Below the pieces are notes generated by a model. That model was not told where the DNA came from. It saw only the letters and a list, made by a program, of their open reading frames with translations, and searched no databases. From positions 1 through 64,000 of the IMG/VR virus record IMGVR_UViG_3300009161_000031: a stretch of DNA of 64,000 nucleotides; one strand, given 5' to 3'. How positions within the stretch are numbered: the first letter of the stretch is position 1; the number at the start of each line of letters is the position of its first letter. This DNA is from a virus. The position numbers and the translations under genes are program-made. Positions 32,539 to 54,100 of the stretch are shown piece by piece.

Positions 32539-32545
32539 CATAAAA

Positions 32546-34252: not shown

Positions 34253-34262
34253 CCATCACAAT

Positions 34263-35367: not shown

Positions 35368-35379
35368 GTATTGAAAATT

Positions 35380-35541: not shown

Positions 35542-35547
35542 GTTTTT

Positions 35548-37004: not shown

Positions 37005-37005
37005 T

Positions 37006-37509
37006 ATGAAAGATATTACAGATATATACAATTCAGATGCATATGGCAGACTTTTTAATACTGTTGCTGATATATATGAATGTGAATGTGAAGAAGATTT
37101 AGTATGTGTTGCTCATAATATTTACAATGAGAATAGAACTAACCACTATACTATCCAAGATTGGATTCTTAATTTAAGAAGTAAAGAATATGAGCAAGGT
37201 ATGCAAGCCTTAAGAACTTTAGATGATAAATATTGTTGTCTTGGAGTATTGTGTGATATAACTCCTAACAATGTTTGGTTTGAAGATGGAAATTTAGACC
37301 TTAGAAGTAATTATACAAATCAGAGTGGTACCTTGCTAGATAATGATATTCTTCATGATTTAGGTATTGCTGATGTTACTCAAAAGATTCTAGCTGGTCT
37401 TAATGATATGGGTACTTCTTTTGATGATATTGCTGATTGCATTGAGGCTAATTCTTTTGCTTCATTGTTATTTCATGCTCCAGAGTTTAATAAGAAAGGT
37501 AGTGAATAA
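37006..37509 (+). CDS. Phage hypothetical protein, paralog 2 of tandem pair
   Basis: Same motifs as 36504-37004. Confidence 0.6.
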   Translation: MKDITDIYNSDAYGRLFNTVADIYECECEEDLVCVAHNIYNENRTNHYTIQDWILNLRSKEYEQGMQALRTLDDKYCCLGVLCDITPNNVWFEDGNLDLRSNYTNQSGTLLDNDILHDLGIADVTQKILAGLNDMGTSFDDIADCIEANSFASLLFHAPEFNKKGSE

Positions 37510-38889
37510 TATGAGTGGCGTTACTTATAAGTCAATGGTTATGTTTGAGAATAATTGGGGTGTGTATGGATATCAGTCCCACAACTTGGGAATGTTTACC
37601 TGTATTGAATGTACTCCGAAAAAGAATATAGATTCGTTAGATGTATTTGAGGTAAATTCTGATACCCGTTGGGCTATTGATGATGAAGATACACAAGGGT
37701 TACAAGGATTAGAATGTTATGATTGTGGGGAAGTTTTATGTGTAGCATATGTACCTTATACTAACGAACAAAACTTGCGTTCTAACTTGCCTGATTTAGA
37801 TTTATTGAATAAAGCATTTGAGTTATTAGTAGAAGCAAACCAAGCCACTAGTGATTGGACTTATTTAAGCATACCAAAGGAGTTAACATAATGGGTGACG
37901 ATTGGATTTGGACTAGTTATCCAGAAACTATGACGTTAGAAGAATATCGTAAGAATAGAGATAAAGTTGAGCCTAAGAACTCTGAGTTTGTTTCGGCATT
38001 GTTTCCTATTGAGGCTACACTTAAAGAAATGGGAGAAAAATGAGTAATGGTAATGTAGTTATTGTCCAGCCTAAGATTGATGATGAGCATATAGATAGTT
38101 ATTGGTATGATGGTTTAATTGCTCATACTATTGATTATGAATTATATGCTCGTGGTGAGATTAAGATTATGATGGTAGATGAAGATGGTAATTATGTGGG
38201 TATGTATGATGGTAAGGCTAGAGATAATTATCGTAAACCATTGAATGACAATGACTTGAAGAAAGTCTATGCTTGTGAGGGTGGCTATATTACTGATAAT
38301 AATAACTGGTTTGAAATCAATATAATCAATGAACCAGACTTTGGGGTTATTGTTGATACCTATGATGAGGGTATCGAACGTCTAATAGAAATGAGTGGTA
38401 AGTAATGAGTATATTTAATAATGACACATATGTGATATTTAAAGATTCAATCCTTGACGAACTTTTTGAGGAGACTAATGGCTCTGTTCATATTGTTTGG
38501 TATGGTGGTAATATGTTTAATGTTTTTATAGACAATGTTGAGATTGACGTATTTACCTATGGTGGAGTTCCTGAGATTACTTTCGATATTGCCTATGCTT
38601 TATGTCAAGATCATTTTGATGAAATAAAGCAAGAATGGAACAGTGAAAATGAGTGAGGGCTATTCTCATATCTTATGGCTCGATGCTATTCTCAAAGACT
38701 TATTGGAGTCAGATGTACAACCAATTCATCCAGATTGGGATAGTAAAGAAAGTTATAAATCTGTTCAGTTAGCGAGAGCAACTTCAGATTTTAGTAATCT
38801 ATCAGGCCAAGAAAAGAGAGATATTTTTCTCTTTTTGTGTGGTTGGGTATTAGACAAACATAGCGGGTTAGATTTAGAGGAAAAAGAAA

Positions 38890-39210
38890 ATGATGAGTAA
38901 TCACGAAACTAAAGAATCATTGAAGAAACAGTCTGAGTATTCAGATTTATCTAGAGCATTGTTAATGGCTAGGTCTATGGAAGATACAGAAATGGTTGTT
39001 GGGCTACTTAAAGAAGTAGATGTAATTCTAGATTCCAACCCTGTAGATAGACTTATTATGCTTGGGTGTCTAGTTAATCTTTCACATTCGTGTGCTAGTG
39101 GAATGGCTGCACTTCTTGATATAGAAATTGCGGATATTGTATTAATGGATGCTACTGCTCAATATCATATTGAAGCTGAGACTATGAATAACTTTACAGA
39201 TGAGGCTTAG
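38890..39210 (+). CDS. Hypothetical protein, last gene of the AT-rich + strand block
   Basis: ORF followed by about 1.4 kb with little coding capacity. Confidence 0.5.
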   Translation: MMSNHETKESLKKQSEYSDLSRALLMARSMEDTEMVVGLLKEVDVILDSNPVDRLIMLGCLVNLSHSCASGMAALLDIEIADIVLMDATAQYHIEAETMNNFTDEA

Positions 39211-40960
39211 TATTTAATGTAAGCAATGTGGTGTTTTAAAGATGTTGAAATAGGGCTAGCGGGTTTTTTCCTTTCTGTCGTGATGGGAAACCTGCACTAT
39301 TTGTTGTAATAGTGTTTACTAACCAGAGTTGTTTGTTGTCTTACTTTTCTTAAGATAATGGGAAAGGTTTCCCGCCCTATTTCTACTTTTTATATTCTAA
39401 GTATATCCATAATCTGTAAACTATATATCGTTAGGATATTAATAAAACTATTTTACAATCATATTGTTATTTTCGGGGGTTTTTAGAGAGTCTAATATCC
39501 CTATATAGAATAGAATCTAAGGGGTCTAGAAGGCTAGCTGATGGCCTTTGTTATTCGGGCGGGACATTGGGATATCATATCTCCCTAGTAAGAGAATAAG
39601 ATAAGAGGCAAGCCAAAAAAGATACCTACCAACAAGGAGAAAAGAATGTTAACGATAATAACAATACTATTCATAATAACCCTAAGCATACTAATAACAA
39701 AAGTTAGTTAAAACAAACATAAAGACAGAGAACAAGGTTCCGCTATGATAACGGAACTAATGACGGGGGTCTGCTGTGCCATAATGTGCATTCTATTTGA
39801 GAGTTTTTTGATATAGAATAGGCTATTTCTAGCTGTTTGTAGATGATATTCGCCTATATATAAAAGAATTTAATATAAAACACTCCCTTATATAACCCTT
39901 ACTAGGAGAATATAAGAGTCGTTTAGACCCGCCGGTTATGGGTTTTGTTGGTGTTTGGTTCATATGTATAGTATATCAAGATTATTGTAAAGTTAGAGGT
40001 TGAGTATCTCCCTCCGCAAATATGATATTAAATTATTTTATTTGTGTTTTTGTAGAAAAAGTCAAAATTTGTTCCGCTGGCGTTTTTTACATATAATGTT
40101 TCTTTATAGGTAAGTTGGCGATAATTGTTGGCGGTATTTGTTGTATTCAGTTATTGCCCGCAAATATCCTCAACAATTGTGGCATTCTTTAACTCCATAA
40201 ATAAAAAAGAAAAATATCTTTTCATAAATTCGGGACTCTATTGTTTTCCTCTATTCTTAGAGTAATTAAAACAATAAATACTAACCGTTATATCCCCGCA
40301 AATAGTTTAGACGGGATTTGAAGAATTTATCCTCTAGTCTAAACTCATATATCTACCAGCAAGTAATTACTCCAAGGTTAGACTGTCACTTTTGTGGCAG
40401 CCGAATCTGGAGTATTTTTTTTGCCCTCATTTAACGCAGTAAAAAAAAGTTTCTTTTTTCAGTTTTAGAATCAAAAACTCGAGAAAATATAAAGTTTATT
40501 TATTTCCAAATAGGTAGACGTTAAAATAACCCCAACATCTAACACCAGATAAAACGGTCGTTTTTTGCTCCTTCGTCGCAAAAAGGGACGACCGCCTAAT
40601 GTGGCTGTCTGATGTTGATGTTTGTGTGTGCGGTATTTATTACACATCCCATTTGTTATCGCACCAGAGGAGGCTGTTGTTCCAAAACAGCCGCAGGCTG
40701 TTTTGGAACAACAGGCCAACAGCTATTAGACAAAAAAAAGGGGAGAGGCTGAGGGAACGTGAAACCCCCAACCTCTCCCCTAATCTTATTTAGAAGTTTA
40801 CGTCTTTTACGCTAACTCCAACATTTACGAGATTAGTTTCATCATTTAGAATCCCACTCATTTGAGCGGTAACTAAATCTTCCATTTCTCTATCTGTAAG
40901 CATTTTTCCTTCATCGCATTCCATACCGATTATCATTGTAAATAGTCTTAGTGTTTTCAT

Positions 40961-41260
40961 TTAGAAGTCCTTTCCAAAGTGTTCATTTATTTTATAGGCT
41001 AGGTATTCTTTATTTCCATTAGCGGGGTGATTCTTTATGCTGTTTTCTAATGATGACTCTTCAGCCAACTTTACTTCAGACTTATTACCGTAAGTCTGAA
41101 CATAAAGTTGATGCCAAGCACTTTCTGCTTCTGATTTGAGAATGTCAATCTCAAACTCTAAGTCTGCTATCTTTCCATCTTTCTTACCTTTACCCATAAG
41201 GTATCCGGCAAGAACAGAACCCATCATTAGTACTACCTGAAACCAAAATAGATTTCTCAT
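40961..41260 (-). CDS. Hypothetical membrane-anchored protein
   Basis: N-terminal hydrophobic helix, then coiled coil. Confidence 0.55.
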   Translation of the reverse strand: MRNLFWFQVVLMMGSVLAGYLMGKGKKDGKIADLEFEIDILKSEAESAWHQLYVQTYGNKSEVKLAEESSLENSIKNHPANGNKEYLAYKINEHFGKDF

Positions 41261-41550
41261 TGAATAAAATCTCCCGTCAACTCAAACAAACCATCTAGTT
41301 TGTTATTTACAACAATAAGCACTCTCTTTAGTTGAGCATTTTGTTCTTCTAAGTCATAAAGATTATTTAGTTTTTTGTGTATCTCTTCCATAGTTCTTGT
41401 TATTCTGGCAATCTCAACATCTTTCTCTACAACAGTCATTTCTAAAGAAGTAATCACTTCTGCTAACTCAAAGTTAGAATAGTTCTCTAACTCAAAGATT
41501 CTTGCTTGTCTAACACTACTAGGAATAAATACTTCTTCTCTATTCTCCAT
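41257..41550 (-). CDS. Hypothetical coiled-coil protein
   Basis: ORF with RBS; heptad pattern. Confidence 0.55.
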   Translation of the reverse strand: MENREEVFIPSSVRQARIFELENYSNFELAEVITSLEMTVVEKDVEIARITRTMEEIHKKLNNLYDLEEQNAQLKRVLIVVNNKLDGLFELTGDFIQ

Positions 41551-41967
41551 TTTTATTTCCTATCTATTAGGCCCGATTAGTCGGGGGTAAGGGGTGGAAC
41601 CGATAAGGCCACCCTAGCACACTCTCCCGCTTGTCTCGCATTGGCAAACTAAAAAAGAAAAAACCAAAATTTTGATCCGGGGAATAGTTCTACATAATGT
41701 TTTCGCATAGAGATGTTTGAGATTATTATTGTTGATTATTGTTGCCGTTAGTTATTCGCTTATTTATTCCAGTTTATTGTTGAGATAAGACGAAGAGATG
41801 CTGGCGTGCCAAAATCGCCGGAGGCGATTTTGGCACGCCAGCCCTGAAGCGGACGCGTCAAGGGGAGGGGCCGTCGCCCCTCCCCTATTCGCCGCAGACC
41901 TTCGGTGCCTGCCTTCCCTTCGGGTCGGGGGCTTGTTCCCCTACCCGCTACTAGTAACCATCGCAGG

Positions 41968-42234
41968 CTAGGCTCTCACCCGTACTTGGGCGAAACCCTC
42001 GGGCGAGAAGTCTACGCGGCACTCTCCCGCTTGAACCTCCGCCCAATGCTTGCGAATGGTTGCGGACACCGTAGGCCGGTCGCTTTTGGCGACAGCGCCG
42101 AATGTCCCCTTGAGGGCTACGCCTTGCTTGGGGGTAACCTTCGCAAGAGTCTCAAGAAGTTCTACAATAAGAACCTTCTTACGACCTCGTGGGGAAACCT
42201 GTACGGAATCCGCTGAAATGAACTCATCGTTCAT
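41968..42234 (-). CDS. Cassette protein, 'SPRGRKK' family copy 1
   Basis: RBS GGAGGTG; near-identical to 43042-43308 and 44662-44928. Confidence 0.8.
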   Translation of the reverse strand: MNDEFISADSVQVSPRGRKKVLIVELLETLAKVTPKQGVALKGTFGAVAKSDRPTVSATIRKHWAEVQAGECRVDFSPEGFAQVRVRA

Positions 42235-42507
42235 TTGTCTAATCACCTCCCGTCTTGAGCCGTTGCTCTTAGTGTTTCGAAGAATCCGAACTTTACCGGA
42301 TTACCTGACAAAGAACAGACTACCGGCCTAGAGCTATTGAGTCCACTTCTGCTCATTCTTTTATTTTTATTCTCAATAACTAACCTACTAAAAAAGCCTC
42401 ATTATTTGACACCACTAGATGCTGTCGTGCCAGGATCGCCTGCGGCGATTTTGGCACGACAGCCCACTCCGTAGCCTCGGGGGTTTCCCCCCGAGGATTT
42501 GCGGAAC

Positions 42508-42717
42508 TTAGACGTACTGCTTCTCACATAGGCAGCATTTGTCGTTGTAGTAAAAATCTGATTCCTTGCGCTGTTTGATGGTCTGCCTGCGAACGATTAG
42601 GGGTATGTAACTACCGCCTTTGGCTCGGGGGTCATTGTGAAAACAGTCGTGACAGACTAAGCCGTTACCGCCTAGGCGATGAACAAAATAACAGCCTTTG
42701 AGTTTTGGAGAAGTCAT
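42508..42717 (-). CDS. Cassette protein, small Cys-rich zinc finger
   Basis: CHDC...CCLC; own promoter and RBS. Confidence 0.65.
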   Translation of the reverse strand: MTSPKLKGCYFVHRLGGNGLVCHDCFHNDPRAKGGSYIPLIVRRQTIKQRKESDFYYNDKCCLCEKQYV

Positions 42718-43041
42718 TATGAGCCTTTCGGACTAGGGGACTTGATTACATACTGAAATCTACTAGCTAACGGCCTGCGAGTCAAGCCTTAGCGAGTATT
42801 TATTCTATTTATTTATTTATCTAACCCCAAGCAATGCTGGCGCTCCAAATCGCCGGAGGCGATTTGGAGCGCCAGCCCCGAGCGCGACAAGGCCCGCTCT
42901 GAGGGGGCAGAGCGGGCCTTGAGCTAGAGTAATTCGGGGGAGAGGTTCGCACCTCTCCCCCTACGGCTGCGGCTATCGGGATTGCCGCTGGCACCTCGCA
43001 CCCCGTAGCAAGCGGGGGGCGCTACTGATACGATTCATCCG

Positions 43042-43308
43042 CTAGCGGATACGCACCTGCGCGTATCCCTCCGGTGAGAAATCAATACGGCATTCGCCGC
43101 TTTGTATAACGCACCAGTGCTTCCGAATCGTTGCTGCTACCGTCGGGCGGTCACTCTTGGCGACTACTCCAAAGGTTCCCTTAAGCGCAACACCCTGCTC
43201 GGGTGTGACGTTCGAGAGAGTGTCAAGCAAATCCTGAATAAGAATTTTCTTGCGCCCTCGCGGGGATACCTGTACGGCATCAGCAGGTAGAAATTCATCT
43301 GCTGGCAT
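43042..43308 (-). CDS. Cassette protein, 'SPRGRKK' family copy 2
   Basis: RBS GAGGTG; paralog. Confidence 0.8.
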   Translation of the reverse strand: MPADEFLPADAVQVSPRGRKKILIQDLLDTLSNVTPEQGVALKGTFGVVAKSDRPTVAATIRKHWCVIQSGECRIDFSPEGYAQVRIR

Positions 43309-43580
43309 AATAATCACCTCGATTCTTGGGCCGTTGCCCGATAGTTACGATGGGAACCTTGCCGTTCCCTGCTGACAAAGACCAAACTAATCGCGATGCC
43401 GTTCCCAGTCAATTTCTGTACGTCATTATTACCTCAAGAAACTTATCATTTGCGCACATTCCATAAAATGTAAATACCGCTACGACTTGACACGGGCGTG
43501 CCTTTTTGCGAGAGCAAAAAGGCACGCCCGCCCTGAGCAACCGGCATCAGGGCGAGCGTACGGCCTTTGGAGGCTCGCTG

Positions 43581-43871
43581 TTAGGCGAAATCCTCGGGGG
43601 TGATGGAGTCCCAATCCATTGCGTCTACGACTTCCTCGGGGCTAATCCCGAGGAGTTCGGTCACCTCTAGGTGACTAACGCCTAAATCTAGCGCTCGGGC
43701 GATAATGGCGGGGCCGAGAGCGTCAAAGGCGCGTGACATAAGAAGCACACCCGTTATGGCGTGACGGATAGAGTCGGGGTCGCCATTGACGACCAACTCG
43801 TGAAGGTTAAACATTGCCTGTACGCTTACCTCTAGCGTTTCTGTTAGTAGATTACGCTCTTGCTCGTTCAT
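43581..43871 (-). CDS. Cassette protein with C-terminal HTH-like segment
   Basis: ARALDLGVSHLEVTELLGISPEEV. Confidence 0.6.
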   Translation of the reverse strand: MNEQERNLLTETLEVSVQAMFNLHELVVNGDPDSIRHAITGVLLMSRAFDALGPAIIARALDLGVSHLEVTELLGISPEEVVDAMDWDSITPEDFA

Positions 43872-44089
43872 TCGGTGGAGCCTCTCTGTTAGGTGACTTG
43901 CTTACAAAAGAGAAACTACTAGCTATTGGCCTGCGAGTCAAGTCGGAGCGGGGATTTATTCTATTTTATTTACAATGCCAAGCCAAGAGATGCTGGCGCT
44001 CCAAATCGCCGGAGGCGATTTGGAGCGCCAGCGCATAGCAAAGCCCCCACCGTTGCCGGTAGGGGCTTTTATTGCTAAGGCGGGGTGGC

Positions 44090-44446
44090 TTAGTTATCCA
44101 GCCCCTTAAACGTGCGTTCGATGTCTCGGATTGTCTGCGCTGCCCACGCATAGGCGAGTCCCTGTAACTCGTCTGCGATAGGCTCCCCCACTAGAAGGCA
44201 GAGAGCGATTCTCAAGCCCTCTTGCTCTCCCTCTATTTTTAGGGCTTCGGCATTGTGCGGGTAGTTAAATGCGTCTAGGCGTAACTCGCTTATTCCTAGT
44301 CGAATGGCTATGGCCTCAACAGCCGATTTGAGGTCTTTAACCCTTTCCATTATCGGATAATGGAAACCTGCCTGATAGTGAAAAAAGTTAAAGATCGCGT
44401 CTTTAAGTTTTTTTTCGTATGCTTCTGCGCTAGTCGCGATGTCCAT
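44090..44446 (-). CDS. Cassette hypothetical protein
   Basis: Lies between promoter 44487-44515 and a terminator hairpin. Confidence 0.65.
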   Translation of the reverse strand: MDIATSAEAYEKKLKDAIFNFFHYQAGFHYPIMERVKDLKSAVEAIAIRLGISELRLDAFNYPHNAEALKIEGEQEGLRIALCLLVGEPIADELQGLAYAWAAQTIRDIERTFKGLDN

Positions 44447-44661
44447 TGGGAGAGCCTTTCGGTTGGGTGGCTTGGGTACAAATGAGAAACTACCAGCTCA
44501 CGGCCTGCGAGTCAAGCCGGAGCGGGTATTTATTCTATTTATTTTTGTTAGCGATACCAGATAATGCTGGCGCTCCAAATCGCCGGAGGCGATTTGGAGC
44601 GCCAGCGCATAGGAAAGCCCCCGCCTCACGGCAGGGGCTTTCCCGTATTCCGCTAAGGGGG

Positions 44662-44928
44662 TTAGCGGATTCTTACCTGAGCGTATCCCTCAGGCGAAAA
44701 GTCAATACGGCACTCTGAAGCCTGAACCTCGCTCCAATGCTTGCGGATAGTCGCCGCAACCGTTGGCCGGTCAGACTTAGCAACCTCACCGAACGTACCT
44801 TTGAGAGATACGCCTTGCTTTGCGGTTACTTTCTTTAGTGTTGCGAGTAGGTCGGGGATTAGGATTTTCTTTCGACCTCGGGGCGATACCTGAACATCGC
44901 TAGCGTCAATAAACTCATCTACGGGCAT
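44662..44928 (-). CDS. Cassette protein, 'SPRGRKK' family copy 3
   Basis: RBS AAAGGAAAG; paralog. Confidence 0.8.
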   Translation of the reverse strand: MPVDEFIDASDVQVSPRGRKKILIPDLLATLKKVTAKQGVSLKGTFGEVAKSDRPTVAATIRKHWSEVQASECRIDFSPEGYAQVRIR

Positions 44929-45198
44929 TTGGCACTTTCCTTTTCTTAGTAGGTAGTTAGAGTAGAAAGTCTCCGCTCCAACAGAGATAAATCTACTCCT
45001 CCCTACTAAGTGAGTCAAGTTGGAGCGAGAGTTTTTCTAGAAACTTTTTGAGTAGCTGTCGGCCCGAGCGTTTATTCCACCTAACATAAAACCTAAGACG
45101 ACTTGACACGGGCGTGCCTTTTTGCGAGGAACGAGCAAAAAGGCACGCCCGCCCTGAGCAACCGGCATCAGGGCGAGCGTGCGGCCTTGCGGAGCGGA

Positions 45199-45426
45199 CT
45201 AGATAATCACGCCCTCCATCAGGTTTACCAACGCATCAGCCGTAGTTACCGGAGCGTAGCCGTAGGCAATAGCGGCGATTATTTCTCTATCGCCATTTTT
45301 TGCGGCGACTCTTAGAACGTGAGAGATAATGGCGACGACATTAGAGTCATTGCTTATCTTATGGGCGATAGAATCGGTGCGATTTATTAGAGCGCTTCTT
45401 ATGGCTTGAGTTTGTTCAGGATTCAC
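45199..45426 (-). CDS. Cassette hypothetical protein
   Basis: GTG start after a GAAAGGCTC leader. Confidence 0.6.
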   Translation of the reverse strand: MNPEQTQAIRSALINRTDSIAHKISNDSNVVAIISHVLRVAAKNGDREIIAAIAYGYAPVTTADALVNLMEGVII

Positions 45427-45712
45427 GTTGGAGCCTTTCGGTTAGGCGACTTGCTTACAAGAGAGAAACTACCAGCTATTGGCCTACGAGTCAAGCCGGA
45501 GAAGGTATTTATTCTATTTTATTTTAGAACTGATACCGAGCAATGCTGGCGCTCCAAATCGCCGGAGGCGATTTGGAGCGCCAGCCCTGAACGCAACAAA
45601 GCCCGCTCTGAGGGGGCAGAGCGGGCTTTGCGATAATGGCGGCCCCCCACGCCCCGTATGCGGGCGTAATGCCTTCAGCAAACCCAACGGGTTATGCGGG
45701 GGGGGCCACGAA

Positions 45713-45853
45713 CTAGAAGTTGAGAGACTCAATCCACGCTGCGACAATCGGCAGGACTATGAACGCCGAGATGCCGAGCAGATACGGGAAGACCTGCCTC
45801 CACCTATCTTGGAGACTAAAGAATACCTCTACGCTATCGAAACGACGGTTCAT
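45713..45853 (-). CDS. 46-aa membrane peptide (not in the ORF track)
   Basis: MNRRFDSVEVFFSLQDRWRQVFPYLLGISAFIVLPIVAAWIESLNF; TGATG overlap with the upstream ORF. Confidence 0.55.
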   Translation of the reverse strand: MNRRFDSVEVFFSLQDRWRQVFPYLLGISAFIVLPIVAAWIESLNF

Positions 45854-46008
45854 CAGATTACCTTTCCGATTAGTGTGATGACTAGAGCGCCTAGACCTAT
45901 TAGGGCTAGGAATCCTAGCGTTATTAGGGTCACGCCGAGTAGCCCTGCGGCCACCTCTGCGAAACTATCTTCGCGAACATTCTTGAACCACACGTTAGAT
46001 AGTTTCAT
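45853..46008 (-). CDS. Small membrane protein
   Basis: RBS AAAGGAAAA; long hydrophobic C-terminus. Confidence 0.6.
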   Translation of the reverse strand: MKLSNVWFKNVREDSFAEVAAGLLGVTLITLGFLALIGLGALVITLIGKVI

Positions 46009-46234
46009 AGTTTTCCTTTGCTCGGGGTTGGTTTCCATAGTTAGAAACTACTAGCTGATGGCCTGCGAGTCAAGTCTATTTGGTTATTTATTCTAAGTTT
46101 ATCTAATACCGATACCAGCCTTTGCTGTCGTGCCTCACATTTATGTGAGGTGTCGTGAGGCACGACAGCCCGATAGGTTTCCGGGCGCGAAAAAGCCCCC
46201 CTTGCGGGGGGCTTCTGCCGACTCTCCGAGGCCG

Positions 46235-46576
46235 CTAGGCGACCTCGGGGCGGTCTTCCCGGCAGTCGTGATGCCCGCTGTAGCAAAACTCGTCGCTATC
46301 GAACTCTATAGAGTCATCGCCCTCAACGAAAATAAGCATCCCTGCGGCCATAGCCTCGTAATGCCCCTCGGGGTTCTGAATGATAGCCATGTAATCCCTG
46401 TCCGTTTGAGGGTCAAGCGCCTCAACGGCATAACCGATTAGAGCAGTTTTATCCGCCCAGTCCGCGTCCCAAAAGTTTCGAGACTCAATAAAGCGCATAA
46501 GTCTCCATTCTTTGACATCAAGTAAGCCGCCAAAGTGAAAATCTAGCAAGTGGCGAACGGTTTCGATGGTCTCCAT
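46235..46576 (-). CDS. Cassette protein, paralog of 46832-47179
   Basis: IETVRHLLDFH...NPEG.YEAMA.GML. Confidence 0.75.
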   Translation of the reverse strand: METIETVRHLLDFHFGGLLDVKEWRLMRFIESRNFWDADWADKTALIGYAVEALDPQTDRDYMAIIQNPEGHYEAMAAGMLIFVEGDDSIEFDSDEFCYSGHHDCREDRPEVA

Positions 46577-46831
46577 TTTTTCCCCTTAGATCGGGAGTGC
46601 GGGGTGCGCTCCAACAAGGACAAAACTAATCGCGTTACCTATTTGAGTCAAGTTATAGAGGCAAATTGAGGAAAAGAATAGGTTCACTCTAAGTAGCCAA
46701 AAGCTATCACCACTCAACGCTGGCGTGCCTCACATTTTTTTGTGAGGTGCCGTGAGGCACGCCAGCCCGATGGGTTTCCGGGCGCGAAAAAGCCCCCCTT
46801 GCGGGGGGCTTCTGCCGACTCTCCGAGGCCG

Positions 46832-47179
46832 CTAGGCAGCCTCGGGGCGAGATTCCCGGCAGTCGTCGTGCTGGTCGATACAAAACTCATCAAGGTCGAA
46901 ATCTAAGATACCTGAGGATTCTATGTGGCTAAGCATACCGACAGCCATCGCTTCGTAGTATCCCTCGGGGTTATTCATAATGACCTGATAATCATCGGCG
47001 GTCTGAGGGTTGATAACGCTCACCGCAAAACCGATAAGCGTCATTTTGTTTTCCCAATTTGCTTCCCAAAAGTTACGAAACATAATGGCACGCATTAGTT
47101 TCCATTCATCGTGGAATGGCATAGTAAATGAATCCTGATGAAAATCTAGCAAGTGGCGAACGGTTTCGATGTTGTCCAT
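46832..47179 (-). CDS. Cassette protein, paralog of 46235-46576
   Basis: Tandem duplicated cassette. Confidence 0.75.
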   Translation of the reverse strand: MDNIETVRHLLDFHQDSFTMPFHDEWKLMRAIMFRNFWEANWENKMTLIGFAVSVINPQTADDYQVIMNNPEGYYEAMAVGMLSHIESSGILDFDLDEFCIDQHDDCRESRPEAA

Positions 47180-47422
47180 TTTGTCCCCTTAGGTTGGGAG
47201 TGCCGGTTGCGCTCCAACAAGGACAAAACTAATCGCGTTTCGGTTTTGAGTCAACTTCTGCTAACGATTTGAGCAAAAGAATAGGTTCACTCTAAGTGGC
47301 CACCAGCTACCACCAGACCCAGCGGGCGCACGCTACGAGGAACGAGTAGCGGGCAGCGTGCGCCCGCCCCCGAGGGGGAGTCACGGAGAGTGGTTGCCCA
47401 CCCTCCGTGACCCGACCGGCCC

Positions 47423-47728
47423 CTACAGGTAGTCGTGGGCGATGTTGCGGATTATGTCGTTTACCCAACGGTCGGGCCAATCGAGGTAATCCTGAGACTC
47501 TGCGAATACGTCCACCGCATTGGCAAATGTGGTCACGCCTACGATAGCGTGCGGGAATCCCATACGGACTAAGGATAGGCTCTGAGTCCATTCCATAGAG
47601 TCTAGGGCTAGGATAAGGGGCATTAGGGCATCTATTGAGTGAACAGATCGCGCCTCGCCGCTGGCGTGAGCCTCAATGAGGCTAAGGCGTAGCGCCTTGC
47701 CCTCTGCGTCTAGTGAGTAATTCGGCAT
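47423..47728 (-). CDS. Cassette hypothetical protein
   Basis: Fits between promoter and terminator hairpin. Confidence 0.65.
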   Translation of the reverse strand: MPNYSLDAEGKALRLSLIEAHASGEARSVHSIDALMPLILALDSMEWTQSLSLVRMGFPHAIVGVTTFANAVDVFAESQDYLDWPDRWVNDIIRNIAHDYL

Positions 47729-47973
47729 AATCGTGGAACCTTTCAGGTGAGGTGCGCCGGTTGCGCTCCAACAAGGACAAACCTACTAGCGTTCCGAATC
47801 TGAGTCAAGGCGGGAGAGCAAATTGAGGAAACAATGATGTTCACTCTAAGTGGCCAAAAGCTACCACCACACTCAGCGGGCGCACGCTACGAGGAACGAG
47901 TAGCGGGCAGCGTGCGCCCGCCCCCGAGGGGGGGTCACGGAGAGTGGTTGCCCACTCTCCGTGACCGGGTCGG

Positions 47974-48219
47974 TTAGAAATCGCACTCGTGGTTTACGTC
48001 GTGGTCGTCAAGGTTGGGAAGTTCGTGCCTCCACGCTTGGTAGAGAATCGCTTCCTCTAGCGCTGCTGCGCTGTAGTTTAGGATTGTGTAATCGAGCCAC
48101 TTAGCGCCCGACTCTGCGGAAATCGTGCGAGAAATCTCGCAACGAAATGCGCGAACTAATGGGGCAAGTGCCGAACGCGACGCGGTTTCGGCGGCTAGGA
48201 CTTTCTGTGTGTTGGTCAT
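47974..48219 (-). CDS. Cassette hypothetical protein, predicted leaderless mRNA
   Basis: ATG 6 nt after the -10 box TAGATT. Confidence 0.65.
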   Translation of the reverse strand: MTNTQKVLAAETASRSALAPLVRAFRCEISRTISAESGAKWLDYTILNYSAAALEEAILYQAWRHELPNLDDHDVNHECDF

Positions 48220-48430
48220 AAGAGAAATCTACCCTAGATTAGATTCTGAGTCTAGTTATGCGGCTAAAGATTGTCTCAAGATGTTGAGGTTAGAATACTC
48301 ACTCTAAGTGGCCAAAAGCTATCACCAGCCGTTGCGGGCGCACGCTACGAGGAACGAGTAGCGGGCAGCGTGCGCCCGCCCCCGAGGGGGGCCACGGAGA
48401 GTGGTTGCCCACTCTCCGTGACCGGGTCGG

Positions 48431-48643
48431 TTACTCCTCCCAGCCGACGATGCGGTCGGGGACTTCCCAGTCCTCAACGTCGCCGTCGTCCTCGCTGCGG
48501 ACAGAGCGGGCGTAGACCTCGGGGTCATCGAAACTGAATTCGTAAACCTTGACCTCGATAGGAGCGCCCCACTGAATTCCAGAGAGGGCCGCGTCCCACT
48601 CCATTGCCAATTCGCTTGCGGTCTTGCCAGAGACGTTCGGCAT
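48431..48643 (-). CDS. Cassette acidic protein
   Basis: C-terminal EDDGDVEDWEVPDRIVGWEE shared with 49546-49731. Confidence 0.7.
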   Translation of the reverse strand: MPNVSGKTASELAMEWDAALSGIQWGAPIEVKVYEFSFDDPEVYARSVRSEDDGDVEDWEVPDRIVGWEE

Positions 48644-48911
48644 CTGCCAAATCCATTCTCTCAGGGAGTCCGCCGGTTGCTCGCTCCAATAAGTACAAAC
48701 TACTCGCGTTCGGAATCTGAGTCAACTTCTGCGTGCGAATTGAGGTAAAAATGATGTTCACTCTAAGTGGCCAAAAGCTATCACCACACAACGCTGGCGC
48801 ACGCTACGAGGGACGAGTAGGCGGCAGCGTGCGCCAGCCCGGGCCAAGGTCACTCTGAGTGATGAGGGGGGAGCGCCCCGACCCTTGCGGGCCGGGGCTT
48901 GACCCCTAGAC

Positions 48912-49220
48912 TCAGATTGAGAGTCTAAAGACCCTGGCTAGGTCTATGATTTCATCGCAAGCGGCTATTGCCTCGGTGCGAGGGACATCGTCGCCGCGTA
49001 GTGGGGCTAGGTCACCCAACACGCTTTGCATAGCGTGGCTGTAGGGGTTATCCATTCCCCAAATGCCGGTGGTCATGAGCACGTTGAAGATAACGTGAGC
49101 GTTCATGAACGTGCACCCCCACAATTCCTGTATCCGTTCCTTAATAAGTACGGAATTGGTGCTTACGGTTACCGCCGCATCGGTTGTCGCGGTTGCGACC
49201 TCTCCAGAGAAGTTCGGCAT
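48912..49220 (-). CDS. Cassette protein, paralog of 50028-50336
   Basis: MPNFSGEVATA...RI.ELW. Confidence 0.7.
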   Translation of the reverse strand: MPNFSGEVATATTDAAVTVSTNSVLIKERIQELWGCTFMNAHVIFNVLMTTGIWGMDNPYSHAMQSVLGDLAPLRGDDVPRTEAIAACDEIIDLARVFRLSI

Positions 49221-49545
49221 GTGGCCAAATCCATTCTCTCGGGGAGGGAGCCGGTTGCTCTCTCCAATAAGTACAAACTACCAAACATCAGTATGCGAGT
49301 CTATTTGTGCGCCTAATTATTACCTCAAGATTAAAAAAAGAATCCAAAAAAAACCAGCTCCCGGCTTGACACGGGCGAGCGGGTGTGATTTGTTCTGCGG
49401 CCACTCTAAGTGACATTTTTTCCCATACCAGCCAACGCGGGCGAGCTTAGCACACGGTAGATCGTGTGTGCGTATGGGGCGGCTCGCCCGCCGAACCCCA
49501 AAGGGGAGGGGAGAGGCTGGAGCCTCTCCCCTTTGCCCCCGGGAG

Positions 49546-49731
49546 TTACTCCTCCCAGCCGGTGATGCGGTCGGGGACTTCCCAGTCCTCAACATCGCCG
49601 TCATCCTCAAGCGGGAACCGGTCGGGGCTGACCGTGTGGAGGATGCTGTCCAACTGTCCGAGCGGATGCCCGAACATGTGTTCTATCAAGCCGCGTGCGT
49701 CAAACGCGGGGCTAGCAGAGAAGTTCGGCAT
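49546..49731 (-). CDS. Cassette acidic protein (chimeric)
   Basis: MPNFS start as in 48912-49220; C-terminus as in 48431-48643. Confidence 0.7.
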   Translation of the reverse strand: MPNFSASPAFDARGLIEHMFGHPLGQLDSILHTVSPDRFPLEDDGDVEDWEVPDRITGWEE

Positions 49732-50027
49732 GTGGCCAAATCCATTCTCTCGGGGAGGGAGCCGGTCGCTCTCTCCAATAAGTACAAACTACCAGCTAAT
49801 GGCTTGCGAGTCTATTTCTGCGGGCTATTTCTTTGCATTATTTCTTTTTTTATTTGTGAGCAGAACTTGACAGCGTACTAAACTTGTACTAGACTACCCC
49901 ACCACTCTGCGCTGGCGCACGCTACGAGGGACGAGTAGGCGGCAGCGTGCGCCAGCCCGGGCCAATGTCACTCTGAGTGATGAGGGGGGGGGGAGCGCCC
50001 CGACCCTTGCGGGCCGGGGCTTGACCC

Positions 50028-50336
50028 CTAGGCTGCGTCTACCCAATCCATCATTAGGTAAACGATTACCTCGGAGGCAATCATCGCCTCGGAGTGTGGA
50101 GTATTAGTCCGACGCAGGCCGATTAGTGAGGCCATTACTCTCTCGCCTGCGGTATGGGCCATTCCCTCGGTTGCCCAAATCATAGTGGACGATAGGGCTC
50201 CGAATACCGCTTGAGCGGTTCTTGAGTCAACATTCCACAATTCTTTGATGCGCTTAGTGATTGCTATTGAGCAAGGCGCTACGGTTACCGCCGTATCGGT
50301 TGCCGCGATTGCGACCTCTCCAGAGAAGGTAGGCAT
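50028..50336 (-). CDS. Cassette protein, paralog of 48912-49220
   Basis: MPTFSGEVAIA...RIKELW. Confidence 0.7.
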   Translation of the reverse strand: MPTFSGEVAIAATDTAVTVAPCSIAITKRIKELWNVDSRTAQAVFGALSSTMIWATEGMAHTAGERVMASLIGLRRTNTPHSEAMIASEVIVYLMMDWVDAA

Positions 50337-50654
50337 TTGGCCAAATCCAGTCTCTCGGGGAGCGAGCCGGTTGCTCTCTCCAATAAGTACAATTTACCAA
50401 ACATCAGTGAGTGAGTCTATTTCTGCGCCTCATTGTTTCCTCAAGATAATAAAAGAAATCCAGCTCCCGGCTTGACACGCAGCCGCGGCTGTGATTTATT
50501 CTGCGACCACTCTAAGTGACCAAAAATGCCAAACCAAGCCGAGCGGGCGAGCTTAGCACACGAAGAGCGTGTGTGCGTATGGGGCGGCTCGCCCGCCGAA
50601 CCCCAAAAGGGGAGGGGAGGGGCCGGAGCCCCCCCCCCTTGCTCCCCCGGAGGG

Positions 50655-50948
50655 TTACTCCTCGTCTCGGAAGACGGGGTACCAACGCTCACCCTCGGGG
50701 GTGACGATGAGAACATCGGCAGCCTCGGCAGCGGCGACGAGAATGTCCACCGTCGCTTCGAGTATTAGCAACTCGAAGGTTGTGGTGAACGAGGTGACCG
50801 CGTCAAGCGCCTTGTCCGTAGCCTTGAACGCGTCGGCCAACTCTTGCGCCTCGTAGCGGTTCACGTAGAACCCCTCTAGGCGTTTCGCGAGAACCGTCGC
50901 GTCGGCTACCGCGGGTGCGGTCTTGCTAAGAGAGAGAATCGGCTTCAT
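50655..50948 (-). CDS. Cassette hypothetical protein
   Basis: Start MKPILSLSK chosen by leader alignment (alternative ATG 50960). Confidence 0.65.
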   Translation of the reverse strand: MKPILSLSKTAPAVADATVLAKRLEGFYVNRYEAQELADAFKATDKALDAVTSFTTTFELLILEATVDILVAAAEAADVLIVTPEGERWYPVFRDEE

Positions 50949-51270
50949 GCCGTAGTCCATTCTCTTGGGGAGTCCGCCGGTTGCTCGCTCCGATAAGTAC
51001 AAACTACCAAACACGCCTATGCGAGTCCATTTCTGCGCCTCATTTTTTCCTCAAGATAAAAAAAAGAATCAAAAAAAAACTAGCTCCCGGCTTGACACGC
51101 AGCCGCGGCTGTGATTTATTTTATGACCACTCTAAGTGACCAAAAATGCCAAACCAAGCCGAGCGGGCGATCCTAGCACACGGTAGATCGTGTGTGCTTG
51201 GGCGGCTCGCCCGCGTGACCCCAAAGGGGGAGGGGAGAGGCCGGAGCCCCTCCCCTTGTTCCCGGCTCCC

Positions 51271-51480
51271 TTAGACTTCGTACCCGTGGCGGGTAAGAAT
51301 GTCCCGGGTCATTGAGACGATTGTCTCGTTGAGGGCAACCATCTCAGCCCCGAACGATTCGCCGTGAGAGCGAATGTTGATGTCAATCCCCGCATTGCGG
51401 ATTGACATTCTCAGCCGGGACTCAGCGTCGCGAACGAAGTCGCGAAGCACACTTGCCCCACTCTCGGTTATTCCGGCCAT
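51271..51480 (-). CDS. Cassette hypothetical protein
   Basis: RBS AAGGAGA before MAGITES. Confidence 0.65.
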   Translation of the reverse strand: MAGITESGASVLRDFVRDAESRLRMSIRNAGIDINIRSHGESFGAEMVALNETIVSMTRDILTRHGYEV

Positions 51481-51802
51481 AACTGTCTCCTTAGGTTCGT
51501 GGAGCGAACCGGTTGTTCCCTCCAACAAGTACTAACCTATCGCGTCCCCGTGTGCGAGTCCACTTCTGCGCCTAAATGTTTCCTCAAGATAAAAAAAAGA
51601 ATCGAAAAAAAACCAGCTCCCGGCTTGACACGGCGGCGCGCCTGTGATTTATTCTGCGGCCACTCTAAGTGACATTTTTTCCGCCCCCAGTTCTCGCGGG
51701 CGATCCTAGCACACGGTAGATCGTGTGTGCTTGGGCGGCTCGCCCGCGTGACCCCAAAGGGGAGGGGAGGGGCCGGAGCCCCCCCCCCTTTTCCCGGGAA
51801 GT

Positions 51803-52048
51803 TTACTTTGTCCACTTAATGGCAAAGTCGATTGCCTTAGGCAACATCACTTGGATGTCGTACTCATCCTCGGTGTAGTAGTCTGTGATGAGGTACTGTA
51901 GCGCCTCACTTATGACCTCGGGGGAGAGTGTGGCAACAAACTCCATGGCCGCCTTGACGCACATGATAGGCATGTGAATCGGGTCAAGGCTAACGGCCTT
52001 GGCGTGTGCCGCGATTGCGGCCTTGCTAAGAGAGAGAATCGGCTCCAT
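51803..52048 (-). CDS. Cassette hypothetical protein
   Basis: MEPILSLSK N-terminus shared with 50655-50948. Confidence 0.65.
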   Translation of the reverse strand: MEPILSLSKAAIAAHAKAVSLDPIHMPIMCVKAAMEFVATLSPEVISEALQYLITDYYTEDEYDIQVMLPKAIDFAIKWTK

Positions 52049-52331
52049 GCCGTAATCCATTCTCTAGGGGAGTCCGCCGGTTGCGTGCTCCGATAAGTAC
52101 AAACTACCAAACACGCGTAGGTGAGTCCACTTCTGCGCCTCATTATTACCTCAAGATAATAAAAAAAATAAATCCGGCTCCCGACTTGACACGGGGCCGC
52201 GGCTGTGATTTATTTCACGGCCACTCTAAGTGGTCAAAAAAGCGTATCCATATTTAGCGGGCGATCCTAGCACACGAAGAGCGTGTGTGCTGTCCGGGCC
52301 GCCCACGTAACTGTTGTTCTGGGGGGCCGCT

Positions 52332-52441
52332 GGGCGCGGCGAGCCGCGATGTGGGGCGCGGCGAGCCGCGATGTGGGGCGCGGCGAGCCGCGATGTGGGG
52401 CGCGGCGAGCCGCGATGTGGGGCGCGGCGAGACGCGATGTG
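52332..52441 (+). repeat. Tandem repeat, 5 x 22 bp GGGCGCGGCGAGCCGCGATGTG
   Basis: Read directly; last copy has one mismatch. Confidence 0.95.
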
Positions 52442-52538
52442 GGGTACGTCAAGCTGACTCCAGGCCAGAACCAGGGCTCGGGCCTGGGCGCGCAGAGGGG
52501 GGAGAGGCCGGAGCCCCTCCCCCGCCTCGCCTGCGGGG

Positions 52539-52652
52539 TTATGCGATGCAGTAGATTAGGAAGCAGAGCAGCTCTGCCCTGCGCTCTTCGCTCAAGAGCG
52601 GGGTCGTGTGGTACGTGTAGTCGAGCAACATAATCAGTTCGCCGTGTGTCAT
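52539..52652 (-). CDS. 37-aa cassette peptide (not in the ORF track)
   Basis: MTHGELIMLLDYTYHTTPLLSEERRAELLCFLIYCIA; RBS AAAGGAAAA; promoter 52694-52722. Confidence 0.6.
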   Translation of the reverse strand: MTHGELIMLLDYTYHTTPLLSEERRAELLCFLIYCIA

Positions 52653-52848
52653 AGTTTTCCTTTTTTCGGGGAGCCGGTTGCTCCGATAAAGATAACTTAT
52701 CACCGGCCCTAGTGTGAGTCAAGTTGGAGCGGGTATTTCTTTTATTTTATTTATCGGGCCGCGCTGTTGGCCGCGCTGTCGGGGTAGGTCGCGTGGTGTG
52801 TGCTGTTGTGTGAGTAGGGCAGGGCGGGTACGCCCTGCTGGCTCTGCC

Positions 52849-52946
52849 CTGGCCTGACCCAGGGTCGCGAGCTGGCCTGACCCAGGGCCGCGAGCTGGCC
52901 TGACCCAGGGCCGCGAGCTGGCCTGACCCAGGGCCGCGAGCTGGCC
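52849..52946 (+). repeat. Tandem repeat, about 4.3 x 23 bp CTGGCCTGACCCAGGGCCGCGAG
   Basis: Read directly; first copy has one mismatch. Confidence 0.95.
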
Positions 52947-53072
52947 GCGTCCTGGCCTACACGCGACAACGCCGCGACCCACGCTATCGGGTCGCGGTGT
53001 TCGCCTATGGCGGTACGATAACCCGCACCCCTTGAGACTCTCGCACTAGGCGAGAGTCTCGCGGGCTACGTG

Positions 53073-53294
53073 CTAGGCGCTTAGGGCTATTAGTTCGGTT
53101 GCGACGTTACCGGCGTTGGCGATTGTGTGGACTAGTGCGGCCTCAAGCGCGGTAGTCTGTCCATCGGTCGCAAGCATTAGCAACATCTCGCGGATAGTCC
53201 GGTCGGCGTTGGAATGGCCAAGAATCGCCTCGGTCACTCGGCGCGTTATTTCGTCAAGCCGTATTTCTACTGCGCGGTGCTGGTGGTGATTCAT
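53073..53294 (-). CDS. Hypothetical protein
   Basis: RBS AAAGGGGA; followed by a 64-bp repeat with hairpin. Confidence 0.6.
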   Translation of the reverse strand: MNHHQHRAVEIRLDEITRRVTEAILGHSNADRTIREMLLMLATDGQTTALEAALVHTIANAGNVATELIALSA

Positions 53295-53382
53295 TATGTC
53301 CCCTTTGGTTGGTTGGTTGGTGGTACGGTAACCCGCACCCCTTGAGACTCTCGCACTAGGCGAGAGTCTCGCGGGCTACGTG

Positions 53383-53664
53383 CTAAACGCTTACGTGGTG
53401 GAACGCTATCACCGCGTTCGCGTTCTCGGCACCGATTACGTTCCCACCGATTACGTGACCGGCGAGACGCGCAAGCCATACGCGGCGCTCTTTAGTTGGC
53501 ATCGCGGCTATTGCTATCGCGGCACCACGTAGGCGAGGCTCTGACTCAAACAGTAGGGCCGCGTTTGCCTTGAGGCGGAGACTCAAGGCATCTTGCTCCC
53601 CTACTACTTGCGCGCGGTCCGCGTTGCCACCGGTGTCCGGTAGGTCTAGCGTGGAATCGAACAT
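53383..53664 (-). CDS. Hypothetical protein
   Basis: RBS AAAGGGGA before MFDSTL; followed by the same 64-bp repeat. Confidence 0.6.
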   Translation of the reverse strand: MFDSTLDLPDTGGNADRAQVVGEQDALSLRLKANAALLFESEPRLRGAAIAIAAMPTKERRVWLARLAGHVIGGNVIGAENANAVIAFHHVSV

Positions 53665-54100
53665 TTGTTCCCCTTTGGTTAGATTCCGAGCGGGTGTCTC
53701 CCGCTCGGCCTTGCCCCTAAAGCGTACCGCGTCGCGGGTGCCGCGCATAGCATCGGGGCCGCGATTAGGCGAAGAATCGGGAGCTTGACCGCGCAGCGTG
53801 GCCAGCTATGGGCCGATTCTCACGCCGCGTGGTCGTTGGAGGTCGTTCTGGCAGATGGTGCGCCAGCACGACAGACTTCTCCTAATATTTATTCAATTTT
53901 TCAAAAATATGTATTCAAGTTTTTGAATTCTTGCATTCAAGTTTTTGAATTTTTGGGTTGTTGTATATTTATGATGAAAGGGGGGCTTTTGGGGTTGTTT
54001 GGTTATATTTATTGGTATGTAGGCACTCTCTGTAAGGTTCGCATGTTTCGTCGCTCTACGGGGCACACAGGGGGCTCTCCGGGGATTGTACACGCCTATA

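Follow-up and report, generated by a model that had tools for sequence, protein, structure and literature searches.

An array of about twenty small-gene cassettes with boundary palindromes in an uncultured freshwater actinophage: a probable counterpart of the hyperplastic regions of T4-type phages

The cassette array and its setting

The window analysed here is a stretch of 64,000 nucleotides, the first 64 kb of IMG/VR virus record IMGVR_UViG_3300009161_000031, which is a complete phage genome of 101,003 bp with direct terminal repeats. Between 41.8 and 52.7 kb its minus strand carries an array of 20 units, here called cassettes, each of which runs in the same order through an AT tract, a predicted promoter, a leader, an open reading frame (ORF) of 37-118 amino acids (aa), a GC-rich hairpin and a palindrome of 38-55 bp (Table 1). 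There is one cargo ORF per cassette, except in cassette 13, which has two. A preliminary description of this DNA had portrayed the units as self-contained, each with its own promoter of fixed 17-bp spacing, a hairpin, a palindrome with conserved ends and variable interior, and cargo mostly unrelated to that of its neighbours, and the analysis reported here bears out each of these features.

The promoter pattern T[T/G/A]GACT-N17-TA[G/A]NNT matches 22 times in the window, against 1.5 +/- 1.15 matches expected from dinucleotide-preserving shuffles. Twenty of the matches, one for each cassette, lie on the minus strand between 42345 and 52722, spaced 440-627 bp apart and all with a spacer of 17 bp; beyond these, the pattern is found only three times more in the whole 101-kb genome on either strand. 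When aligned, the sites share TnGACTC, often a TGn extension before the -10 element, and a -10 element of TAGTTT, TAGATT or TAGGTT. They fit the form of actinobacterial sigma-A promoters, TTGACN/TAGRRT. The leader of many cassettes bears a small conserved stem-loop, GGAG...CAACCGG...CTCC.

Stretches holding the terminator-like hairpins and palindromes were folded as DNA, and five of the six gave z-scores of -4 to -10 relative to shuffles. Long palindromes are concentrated here, with 25 of the 30 in the 101-kb genome falling in 40.67-53.4 kb. The scaffolds around the ORFs are of three types: in type A (42.3-46.1 kb) a perfect palindrome of 41-43 bp encloses a 3-nt loop, in type B (46.7-48.8 kb) the outer stem measures 13-15 bp and the interior loop is large, and in type C (49.4-52.3 kb) an outer stem of 8 bp leads through an internal loop to an inner stem. 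The palindrome is always found immediately behind the hairpin of the ORF, and its distance to the next -35 element varies (10, 27, 50, 67 or ~130 nt).

The cargo ORFs have a GC content of 46-61% and a third-position GC content (GC3) of up to 0.79, against a GC3 of 0.24-0.33 in the ORFs of the AT-rich terminal unit (40.8-41.55 kb) that adjoins the array. Most are unrelated to one another, apart from the paralogs 15/18/20, 11/12 and 5/7 and from 2/4 and 6/8, which have ends in common. Pfam gave no significant match for the 20 cargo ORFs scanned, and PHROGs none for the 10 scanned. Four contigs of a lake metatranscriptome (run X11) match the cargo ORFs of cassettes 20, 18, 14 and 10 at 100% identity; they cover these four ORFs only, so that gaps elsewhere carry no meaning, and are a hint of cargo expression, not proof of it.

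Table 1. Positions of the array features and of the recombination genes, numbered along the window
Feature	Position	Strand	Details
Upstream border, GC-rich, no consensus promoter	52723-54100	-	Small ORFs 53383-53664, 53073-53294
Same 37-nt hairpin after each border ORF	53339-53375, 53029-53065	-	
Cassette 1	52130-52722	-	-35 at 52722; ORF 52539-52652 (37 aa)
Cassette 1 palindrome, degenerate type C	~52257-52306	-	
Cassette 2	51563-52129	-	ORF 51803-52060 (85 aa); type-C palindrome ~51696-51747
Cassette 3	51030-51562	-	ORF 51271-51480 (69 aa); type-C palindrome ~51163-51214
Cassette 4	50420-51029	-	ORF 50655-50960 (101 aa); type-C palindrome ~50543-50596
Cassette 5	49815-50419	-	ORF 50028-50336 (102 aa), 41% aa identity to cassette 7 paralog; palindrome 49911-49956
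Cassette 6	49304-49814	-	ORF 49546-49731 (61 aa); type-C palindrome ~49437-49491
Cassette 7	48726-49303	-	ORF 48912-49220 (102 aa); palindrome 48793-48838
Cassette 8	48255-48725	-	ORF 48431-48643 (70 aa); type-B palindrome 48334-48379
Cassette 9	47809-48254	-	ORF 47974-48219 (81 aa); type-B palindrome 47876-47921
Cassette 10	47255-47808	-	ORF 47423-47728 (101 aa); type-B palindrome 47322-47367; RNA contig 47435-47699
Cassette 11	46652-47254	-	ORF 46832-47179 (115 aa), 56% aa identity to cassette 12 paralog; palindrome 46719-46766
Cassette 12	46074-46651	-	ORF 46235-46576 (113 aa); palindrome 46124-46169
Cassette 13	45495-46073	-	ORFs 45853-46008 (51 aa, hydrophobic), 45713-45853 (46 aa); perfect 41-bp palindrome 45545-45585
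Cassette 14	45019-45494	-	ORF 45199-45426 (75 aa); palindrome 45109-45151; RNA contig 45228-45450
Cassette 15	44516-45018	-	ORF 44662-44928 (88-aa family); predicted terminator 44612-44643; palindrome 44566-44606
Cassette 16	43942-44515	-	ORF 44090-44446 (118 aa); predicted terminator 44040-44069; palindrome 43992-44032
Cassette 17	43413-43941	-	ORF 43581-43871 (96 aa); palindrome 43493-43530
Cassette 18	42786-43412	-	ORF 43042-43308 (88-aa family); hairpins 42934-42963, 42888-42921; palindrome 42836-42876; RNA contig 42991-43362
Cassette 19	42346-42785	-	ORF 42508-42717 (69 aa, Cys-rich); palindrome 42421-42463, loop flipped (GCA)
Cassette 20	41800-42345	-	ORF 41968-42234 (88-aa family); palindrome 41800-41842; RNA contig 42086-42328
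Terminal unit, AT-rich, no consensus promoter	40672-41799	-	ORFs 41257-41550, 40961-41260, 40790-40960
Predicted terminator of terminal unit, canonical	40739-40781	-	
Palindrome of terminal unit, AT-richer	40672-40716	-	Same class as array palindromes
UvsX/RecA-like recombinase	12345-13298	+	Outside array
Cas4/RecE-like exonuclease	13918-14667	+	Outside array
RuvC-like Holliday-junction resolvase	14965-15528	+	Outside array
SSB	6552-7202		Outside array
Mre11/SbcD-like exonuclease	1116-2363		Outside array

Independent data confirm both junctions between the array and the rest of the genome. In run X2, from a sample and study other than those of the best holder, a single contig of 90,384 bp covers the rest of the genome and reaches into the array on one side at 42859 and on the other at 53356, both at 100% identity. 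Because this one contig crosses both junctions, the GC-rich block is physically joined to the AT-rich backbone on both sides and is no chimera. The same cassettes are also carried by contig L085, from another sample. Inside the array, Logan contigs are interrupted wherever a scaffold is repeated, and the order of cassettes whose scaffolds are 90-100% identical (8, 9 and 10) comes from the original short-read assembly alone. Run X3, and most of those run X4 joints whose sides are short (36-39 nt), are too weak to support any reading.

The genes of the record are those of a long-tailed siphovirus (portal, head protease, major capsid protein and terminase) with two giant ORFs, a tape measure protein of 2557 aa and a tail protein of 2145 aa. 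Replication is represented by a DNA polymerase of 1135 aa (PHROG family 405), a DnaB-like helicase, a primase and ribonucleotide reductase. The phage is an actinophage: it has two WhiB genes (3687-3812 and 20115-20297), a family that among the control genomes matches only Corynebacterium, its closest cultured terminases are those of Streptomyces and Gordonia phages (38% identity), and its gene order, with two glycosyltransferases leading into ribonucleotide reductase, resembles that of Streptomyces phage Annadreamy. An array of this type was not found at the left end of Annadreamy, and GenBank phages gave no megablast match to the array or to 1-20 kb. All runs that hold the phage are freshwater, lake or sediment metagenomes, and it looks like a lytic phage.

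GC content changes in blocks along the genome, from 41% at 1-23 kb to 31-34% at 24-40 kb and 52-62% at 42-54 kb, where the array lies, with ~40% elsewhere. The AT-rich block is a run of small plus-strand genes of 16 kb (24000-40000; 30-34% GC), a second accessory region that abuts the GC-rich array and includes tRNA-Glu (32546-32618) and tRNA-Leu (35547-35631). Directly upstream of the array lies a cytosine-5 DNA methyltransferase (54101-55108) whose 5' part has backbone-like GC and whose 3' half is GC-rich, such that the gene may be chimeric; it is adjoined by a small endonuclease of PHROG family 452 (55351-55698), possibly Vsr-like.

Several smaller repeats are also found in the array. The motif CACT[T/C]AGAGTG is present in 11 copies in 47288-52222, about one per type B or C cassette, between palindrome and promoter, and nowhere else in the 101-kb genome. 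In cassettes 5-8 (e.g. 49234-49170) the cargo ATG has no clear Shine-Dalgarno sequence and is preceded by the conserved GAGAGAATGGATTTGGCCAC, within which an ATG opens an out-of-frame upstream ORF of ~21 codons. Two GC-rich tandem repeats with 98% matches, at 52332-52444 (22 bp x5.1) and 52849-52946 (23 bp x4.3), sit at the promoter-distal and promoter-proximal sides of cassette 1; run X4 has a 69-nt skip inside the second of these (52848->52918), which equals a difference in copy number, and a further skip from 52386 to 52758.

Cassette differences between strains and distribution in the clade

The earlier proposal that the array can be shuffled is supported by several comparisons between strains. 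Contig L085 is 90-100% identical to the window and has its cassettes in the order 8-10-9-X-13-14-15, where the window has 8-9-10-11-12-13-14-15. Cassette X is a third allele of the 11/12 family (53-55% aa identity) set between flanks of at least 95% identity, and ORF15 is 100% identical in the two. A 1650-bp contig of run X4 has the same joint in the 11/12 slot, from 46291 to 47139 with 244 other letters between; a contig of this run may also skip cassette 5 (joint 49812->50508, weak). Among further contigs, L104 has one extra cassette relative to L101, which is bordered by ~130-bp direct repeats that include the palindrome. G002 and G004, two relatives introduced below, share one complete cassette at 96% identity (promoter region, 47-aa ORF, hairpin, palindrome and ~65 nt past the palindrome) between flanks that are unalignable or 70-75% identical. 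These comparisons indicate that cassette content differs between strains and that a whole cassette has moved between diverged phages.

The scaffolds of the window itself are mosaic, in that the half with terminator and palindrome and the half with promoter and leader have different best partners. Scaffolds 11>12 and 12>13 are 94% identical as far as the last base of the palindrome (its 3' edge) and not at all beyond it, 13>14 and 16>17 are 87% identical from its first base (the 5' edge) onwards and not at all before it, and the palindrome alone is common to several scaffolds. The 3' modules of the unrelated ORFs 14 and 17 are 93% identical, and some ORFs are themselves chimeric: 2 and 4 have the same first 15 aa, and 6 and 8 the same last 20 aa. 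The statement that neighbouring scaffolds are usually most alike holds only in part, since the non-adjacent 5>/7>, 13>/16> and 14>/17> are mutual best matches. Taken together, the junctions fall at 0, +11, +35, ~+40 and +65 nt from the palindrome, close to it and at no fixed nucleotide.

Five relatives with terminase identities of 68-70% (G002, G003 and G005 complete, G004 and G006 partial) each have two or three copies of the 88-aa protein family of cassettes 15, 18 and 20, located in an island of raised GC along with 5-10 palindromes of the same class. The array is seen in every relative examined that spans the region, and G006 was found by the palindrome pattern alone and then proved to hold three copies of the family. 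The step from GC-rich array to AT-rich backbone is present in the long contigs L087, L094, L099 and L104 also. Because the relatives and these further contigs show the same island, it is ancestral and maintained, not a recent insertion. The array of this phage is the largest seen, with ~21 palindromes against ~5-10 in relatives, in agreement with the suggestion that such arrays can expand. The exact promoter pattern had no match in IMG/VR, and relatives G001-G005 lack its strict form, their arrays having promoters of other sequence. Proteins flanking the array (56889-57590 and 37006-37509) were not found in relatives at 68% terminase identity; locus synteny is therefore unusable for comparison.

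The three paralogs of the 88-aa family in the window have ~80% protein identity, with non-synonymous divergence (dN) of ~0.15 and saturated synonymous divergence (dS), which makes them old duplicates under purifying selection. There are 139 homologs in a metagenome protein collection, often two per contig, and contigs fetched by way of the family have the same unit architecture (L097, L104) and the same kind of palindrome. No match was found by tblastn against GenBank phages; a search of IMG/VR for related loci with the 88-aa trio gave no confirmed relative, and single-record profile searches later found the family. The protein has a basic N-terminus (PRGRKK) and a predicted fold with a predicted local distance difference test (pLDDT) score of 65.7. 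The model has no structural match in the PDB at E <= 0.001, and its weak resemblance to KH/R3H and RNase E/G subdomains provides leads only. By co-occurrence only, the protein is a candidate binder of the palindrome base.

The boundary palindrome

We compared 41 non-redundant copies of the palindrome, from at least 14 contigs, and found that they share a 10-bp base, GC[T/G]G[G/T]CG[C/T]TC; in the relatives the base is GC[G/A]GG[C/T]GTAA. The inner 8-11 bp vary freely and yet remain complementary. Of the cells in 14 gap-free copies, each 41 nt long, 98.5% are paired; 11 of the 19 pairs have changed on both sides and the seven outermost pairs are invariant, with no G-U pair among 266 paired cells. 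Near-perfect palindromes were selected for this set, so that the high pairing is partly by construction, which does not apply to the double changes or the conserved base. Read on one or other strand, most loops are GNA with a closing C-G pair, and their orientation flips between copies. C-GNA-G is a very stable DNA triloop. Because the interior covaries, the base is conserved, G-U pairs are absent and the loop orientation flips, we favour a DNA-level element (a cruciform, a hairpin or a symmetric site) over an RNA structure.

Scans of IMG/VR with the palindrome pattern returned mostly chance, non-palindromic matches, and true palindromes of the class in only two or three viral loci; in 596 Gb of bacterial genomes there were scattered single matches only, with few true palindromes. 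Four other identities for the palindromes were considered and set aside. A host repeat of the repetitive extragenic palindromic (REP) type with its associated tyrosine transposase (RAYT) was rejected, given that matches in bacterial genomes are single and mostly imperfect and that PF01797 is absent. The spacing is wrong for a LexA box, and the Chi reading was dropped as GCTGGTGG occurs only four times in the genome. Hairpin promoters of the N4 type were rejected in the absence of a virion RNA polymerase, the two giant ORFs being the tape measure and tail proteins.

The relatives G002 (L283), G003 (L284; 8300-13000), G004 (L286) and G005 (L285) also have a short palindromic sequence, GTAAnnTTA[C/G], in 18-76 copies and at up to 18 per kb, concentrated almost wholly in the array, with hardly any elsewhere in each 20-kb locus. 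The copies are placed immediately ahead of start codons, behind stop codons and within the arms of the large palindromes, and the cassette common to G002 and G004 has TGTAATATTACA at its start and its end. The same use is made of TAACGTTA in G006 and of CCGATCGG in L088. This looks like a dense, lineage-specific motif for protein binding or recombination; unlike the relatives, the window's own array was found to have no dense short palindromic motif. In L104 (9600-12800), cassettes lie on both strands, some with promoters ~10 nt from the palindrome and near-leaderless starts, and a motif ~25 nt to the left of the palindrome, GGGCAYACATTCCAG, keeps a constant DNA orientation whichever way the genes point.

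Exchange of cassettes and comparison with known systems

We consider that the locus is probably a hyperplastic region, comparable with the promoter-early stem-loop (PeSL) regions of T4-type phages, of some 20 moron-like units of genes dependent on the host RNA polymerase, which are shuffled by homologous recombination and carry a boundary palindrome. Each unit would be transcribed from a sigma-A/sigma-70-type promoter (TTGACT-N17-TAGNNT) behind its AT-rich upstream tract. The host-type promoters suggest early genes, and early timing, like promoter and terminator activity, is predicted from the DNA alone. Repeated scaffolds, together with a palindrome common to unlike scaffolds, would form a substrate for general homologous recombination, by which cassettes could be deleted, duplicated, reordered or replaced, with the exchange performed by the phage's RecA-like recombinase, exonucleases and RuvC-like resolvase. 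The same process could pass whole cassettes between co-infecting relatives. Exchanges would cluster at the palindrome because it is the patch that otherwise unlike scaffolds have in common, and nuclease cutting of hairpins or cruciforms may add to them. As had been noted earlier, no integrase is present: the complete 101-kb genome has no match to the tyrosine recombinase PF00589, which does match control genomes, nor to the serine recombinase PF00239 or the Y1 transposase PF01797. The further suggestion of a dedicated gene-shuffling system is not supported, because crossover positions that vary from 0 and +11 to +35, +40 and +65 nt fit general homologous recombination, for which the RecA-like and RuvC-like genes suffice.

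Several observations sit uneasily with this account. It does not explain the GC island, or the gap in GC3 between the cargo of the island and the adjoining AT-rich terminal unit. The palindrome base is kept across phages that have no other DNA similarity and the interiors are strictly Watson-Crick, and plain recombination homology explains neither. Some first hairpins (types B and C) have no T run, and the RNA evidence consists of four contigs from one metatranscriptome that possibly contains DNA. The difference in 9/10 order may be an assembly ambiguity, given that the scaffolds after 8, 9 and 10 are 92-94% identical. Finally, the k-mer depth of cassette contigs in 42849-52361 is 37-56 in X2 against 25.8 for the backbone, or about twofold; this excess, which is not seen in X3 or X4, could be due to GC bias, to a second co-occurring genome with identical cassettes or to extra copies.

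Other accounts assign the palindrome a more direct part. It might act as RNA, either as a second, fail-safe or bidirectional terminator or as a hairpin for RNase III processing or stabilisation, such that the units are insulated and their shuffling is incidental. Its position would suit this, always after the ORF and first hairpin and before the next promoter, on either strand, as would the lack of any other hairpin in some cassettes (L097), the first hairpins without a T run and the stem of 19-20 bp. Such a stem is long enough for RNase III. We nevertheless regard an RNA-level role as unlikely: the loop can face either way with respect to transcription, the base sequence is conserved across diverged phages, which a terminator would not need, the flanking motif of L104 keeps its DNA orientation while genes switch strand, and other genes of the phage do not use the palindrome. 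The absence of G-U pairs also argues against it, albeit partly as an effect of selection. Alternatively, the palindrome could be a dedicated, structure-specific recombination joint that is extruded as a cruciform or hairpin, recognised at its base and cut, in a recombinase-free exchange of integron-like kind; the cut might be made by the RuvC-like resolvase, by the Mre11-like nuclease or by a clade protein such as the 88-aa family. The conserved outer 10 bp, the covarying interior free of G-U pairs, the C-GNA-G loops on one strand or the other and flipped between copies, the confinement of the palindromes to the array and the presence of genes for a resolvase and a hairpin nuclease all agree with such a joint, and palindromes and 88-aa family go together in all genomes examined, G006 among them. 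Several homology blocks stop exactly at the palindrome edges, but this is also expected if the palindrome is merely the sole conserved patch. The junctions are variable, at 0, +11 and +35 nt in the window, ~40-50 nt to either side in L101/L104 and +45 and +65 nt in G002/G004, no recognising protein emerged from the analysis, and the predicted fold of the 88-aa protein is of low confidence and has no structural match, all of which makes a dedicated joint quite improbable in our view. Were it true, it would amount to an integrase-free analogue of the integron acting within and between actinophages; the conserved GC island would then also be accounted for, either by GC-biased repair in the course of recombination at the joint or by a common pool of cassettes.

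The composition of the array (52-62% GC, where the backbone has ~40% and the adjoining 24-40 kb 31-34%, with cargo GC3 up to 0.79) and the twofold depth of its contigs in X2 could also be read as signs of foreign DNA, recently inserted from a high-GC donor, or of an assembly chimera. This is largely refuted and we give it very little credence, since each of the two junctions is spanned, at 100% identity, by a single contig from an independent run, the same island stands at the GC step in all five relatives examined and in four further long contigs, and the 88-aa paralogs, with saturated dS, are old and common to the clade. We return to homologous recombination between scaffolds as the simplest account, as has been shown for PeSLs. 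Since recombination homology does not explain the base conservation or the Watson-Crick interiors, the palindrome has a function of its own beyond it. Most likely it acts as DNA, either as a cruciform or hairpin or as a symmetric site whose conserved base is read by a clade-conserved protein; it would then be a boundary or regulatory element, recombination being a by-product.

The closest parallel is with the PeSL cassettes in the hyperplastic regions of T4-type phages (Arbiol et al. 2010, PMC2839356; Comeau et al. 2014, PMC4122927), where the crossover points are located in the loop, within the AT tract or in the interval from the ribosome-binding site to the -10 element (PMC2839356). Excised circles are also on record for PeSL units. 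In both cases the small ORFans of a variable region are flanked by a repeat composed of stem-loop, AT-rich tract and host-type promoter, ORFans are inserted, deleted or replaced between close relatives, crossovers fall at varying points of the repeat, and no site-specific recombinase is involved. The present array is found in a siphovirus of Actinobacteria rather than a T4-type myovirus, is far denser with its 20 consecutive units, has a separate perfect or near-perfect palindrome of 38-55 bp with a clade-conserved 10-bp base besides the terminator hairpin, and forms a GC island. By analogy, then, the array would work like PeSLs, yet outside the T4-type set.

Morons, known from lambdoid and other phages, are genes with their own promoter and terminator inserted between phage genes, often with deviant composition. 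The cassettes resemble them as modules of promoter, ORF and terminator whose composition is unlike that of the backbone. Morons are scattered single insertions, often expressed from the prophage, whereas here 20 units stand head to tail with common scaffolds and boundary palindromes. The host-takeover module of SPO1 and the pre-early and early regions of T5 are dense in small early genes with many strong host-type promoters and terminators, and the array shares with them this dense clustering of small genes under host-type signals; to our knowledge, boundary palindromes and cassette exchange have not been described for those regions. With integrons the array has in common a series of small, mostly unrelated ORFs parted by palindromes with conserved ends and a variable interior. 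There is, however, no integrase of any kind, an IntI-type tyrosine recombinase included. The palindrome ends are GC[T/G]G[G/T]CG...CG[C/A]C[A/C]GC and, as had been observed before, not the attC boxes RYYYAAC/GTTRRRY. Each cassette has its own promoter-like site instead of being promoterless under a common Pc, junctions vary, and the palindromes are strictly symmetric where attC has extrahelical bases. None of the integron's defining features that could be looked for here was found, and we do not read the array as an integron-like machine.

Relative to the literature searched, the novelty lies in the group of hosts, the type of phage, how densely the units are packed, the separate long palindrome with its clade-conserved base, the conserved GC island and the travelling 88-aa family. 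Three features are thus added to the PeSL type: the long palindrome that combines a conserved base with a covarying interior, the clade-conserved island of 15-25 percentage points in GC and the multi-copy small protein that travels with the array. The ~20 fast-turnover ORFans per genome are a natural place to seek host-takeover or anti-defence proteins of phages infecting the abundant Actinobacteria of lakes. Modular shuffling of the PeSL type, documented so far only in T4-type myoviruses, would be extended to a clade of uncultured freshwater actinophages.

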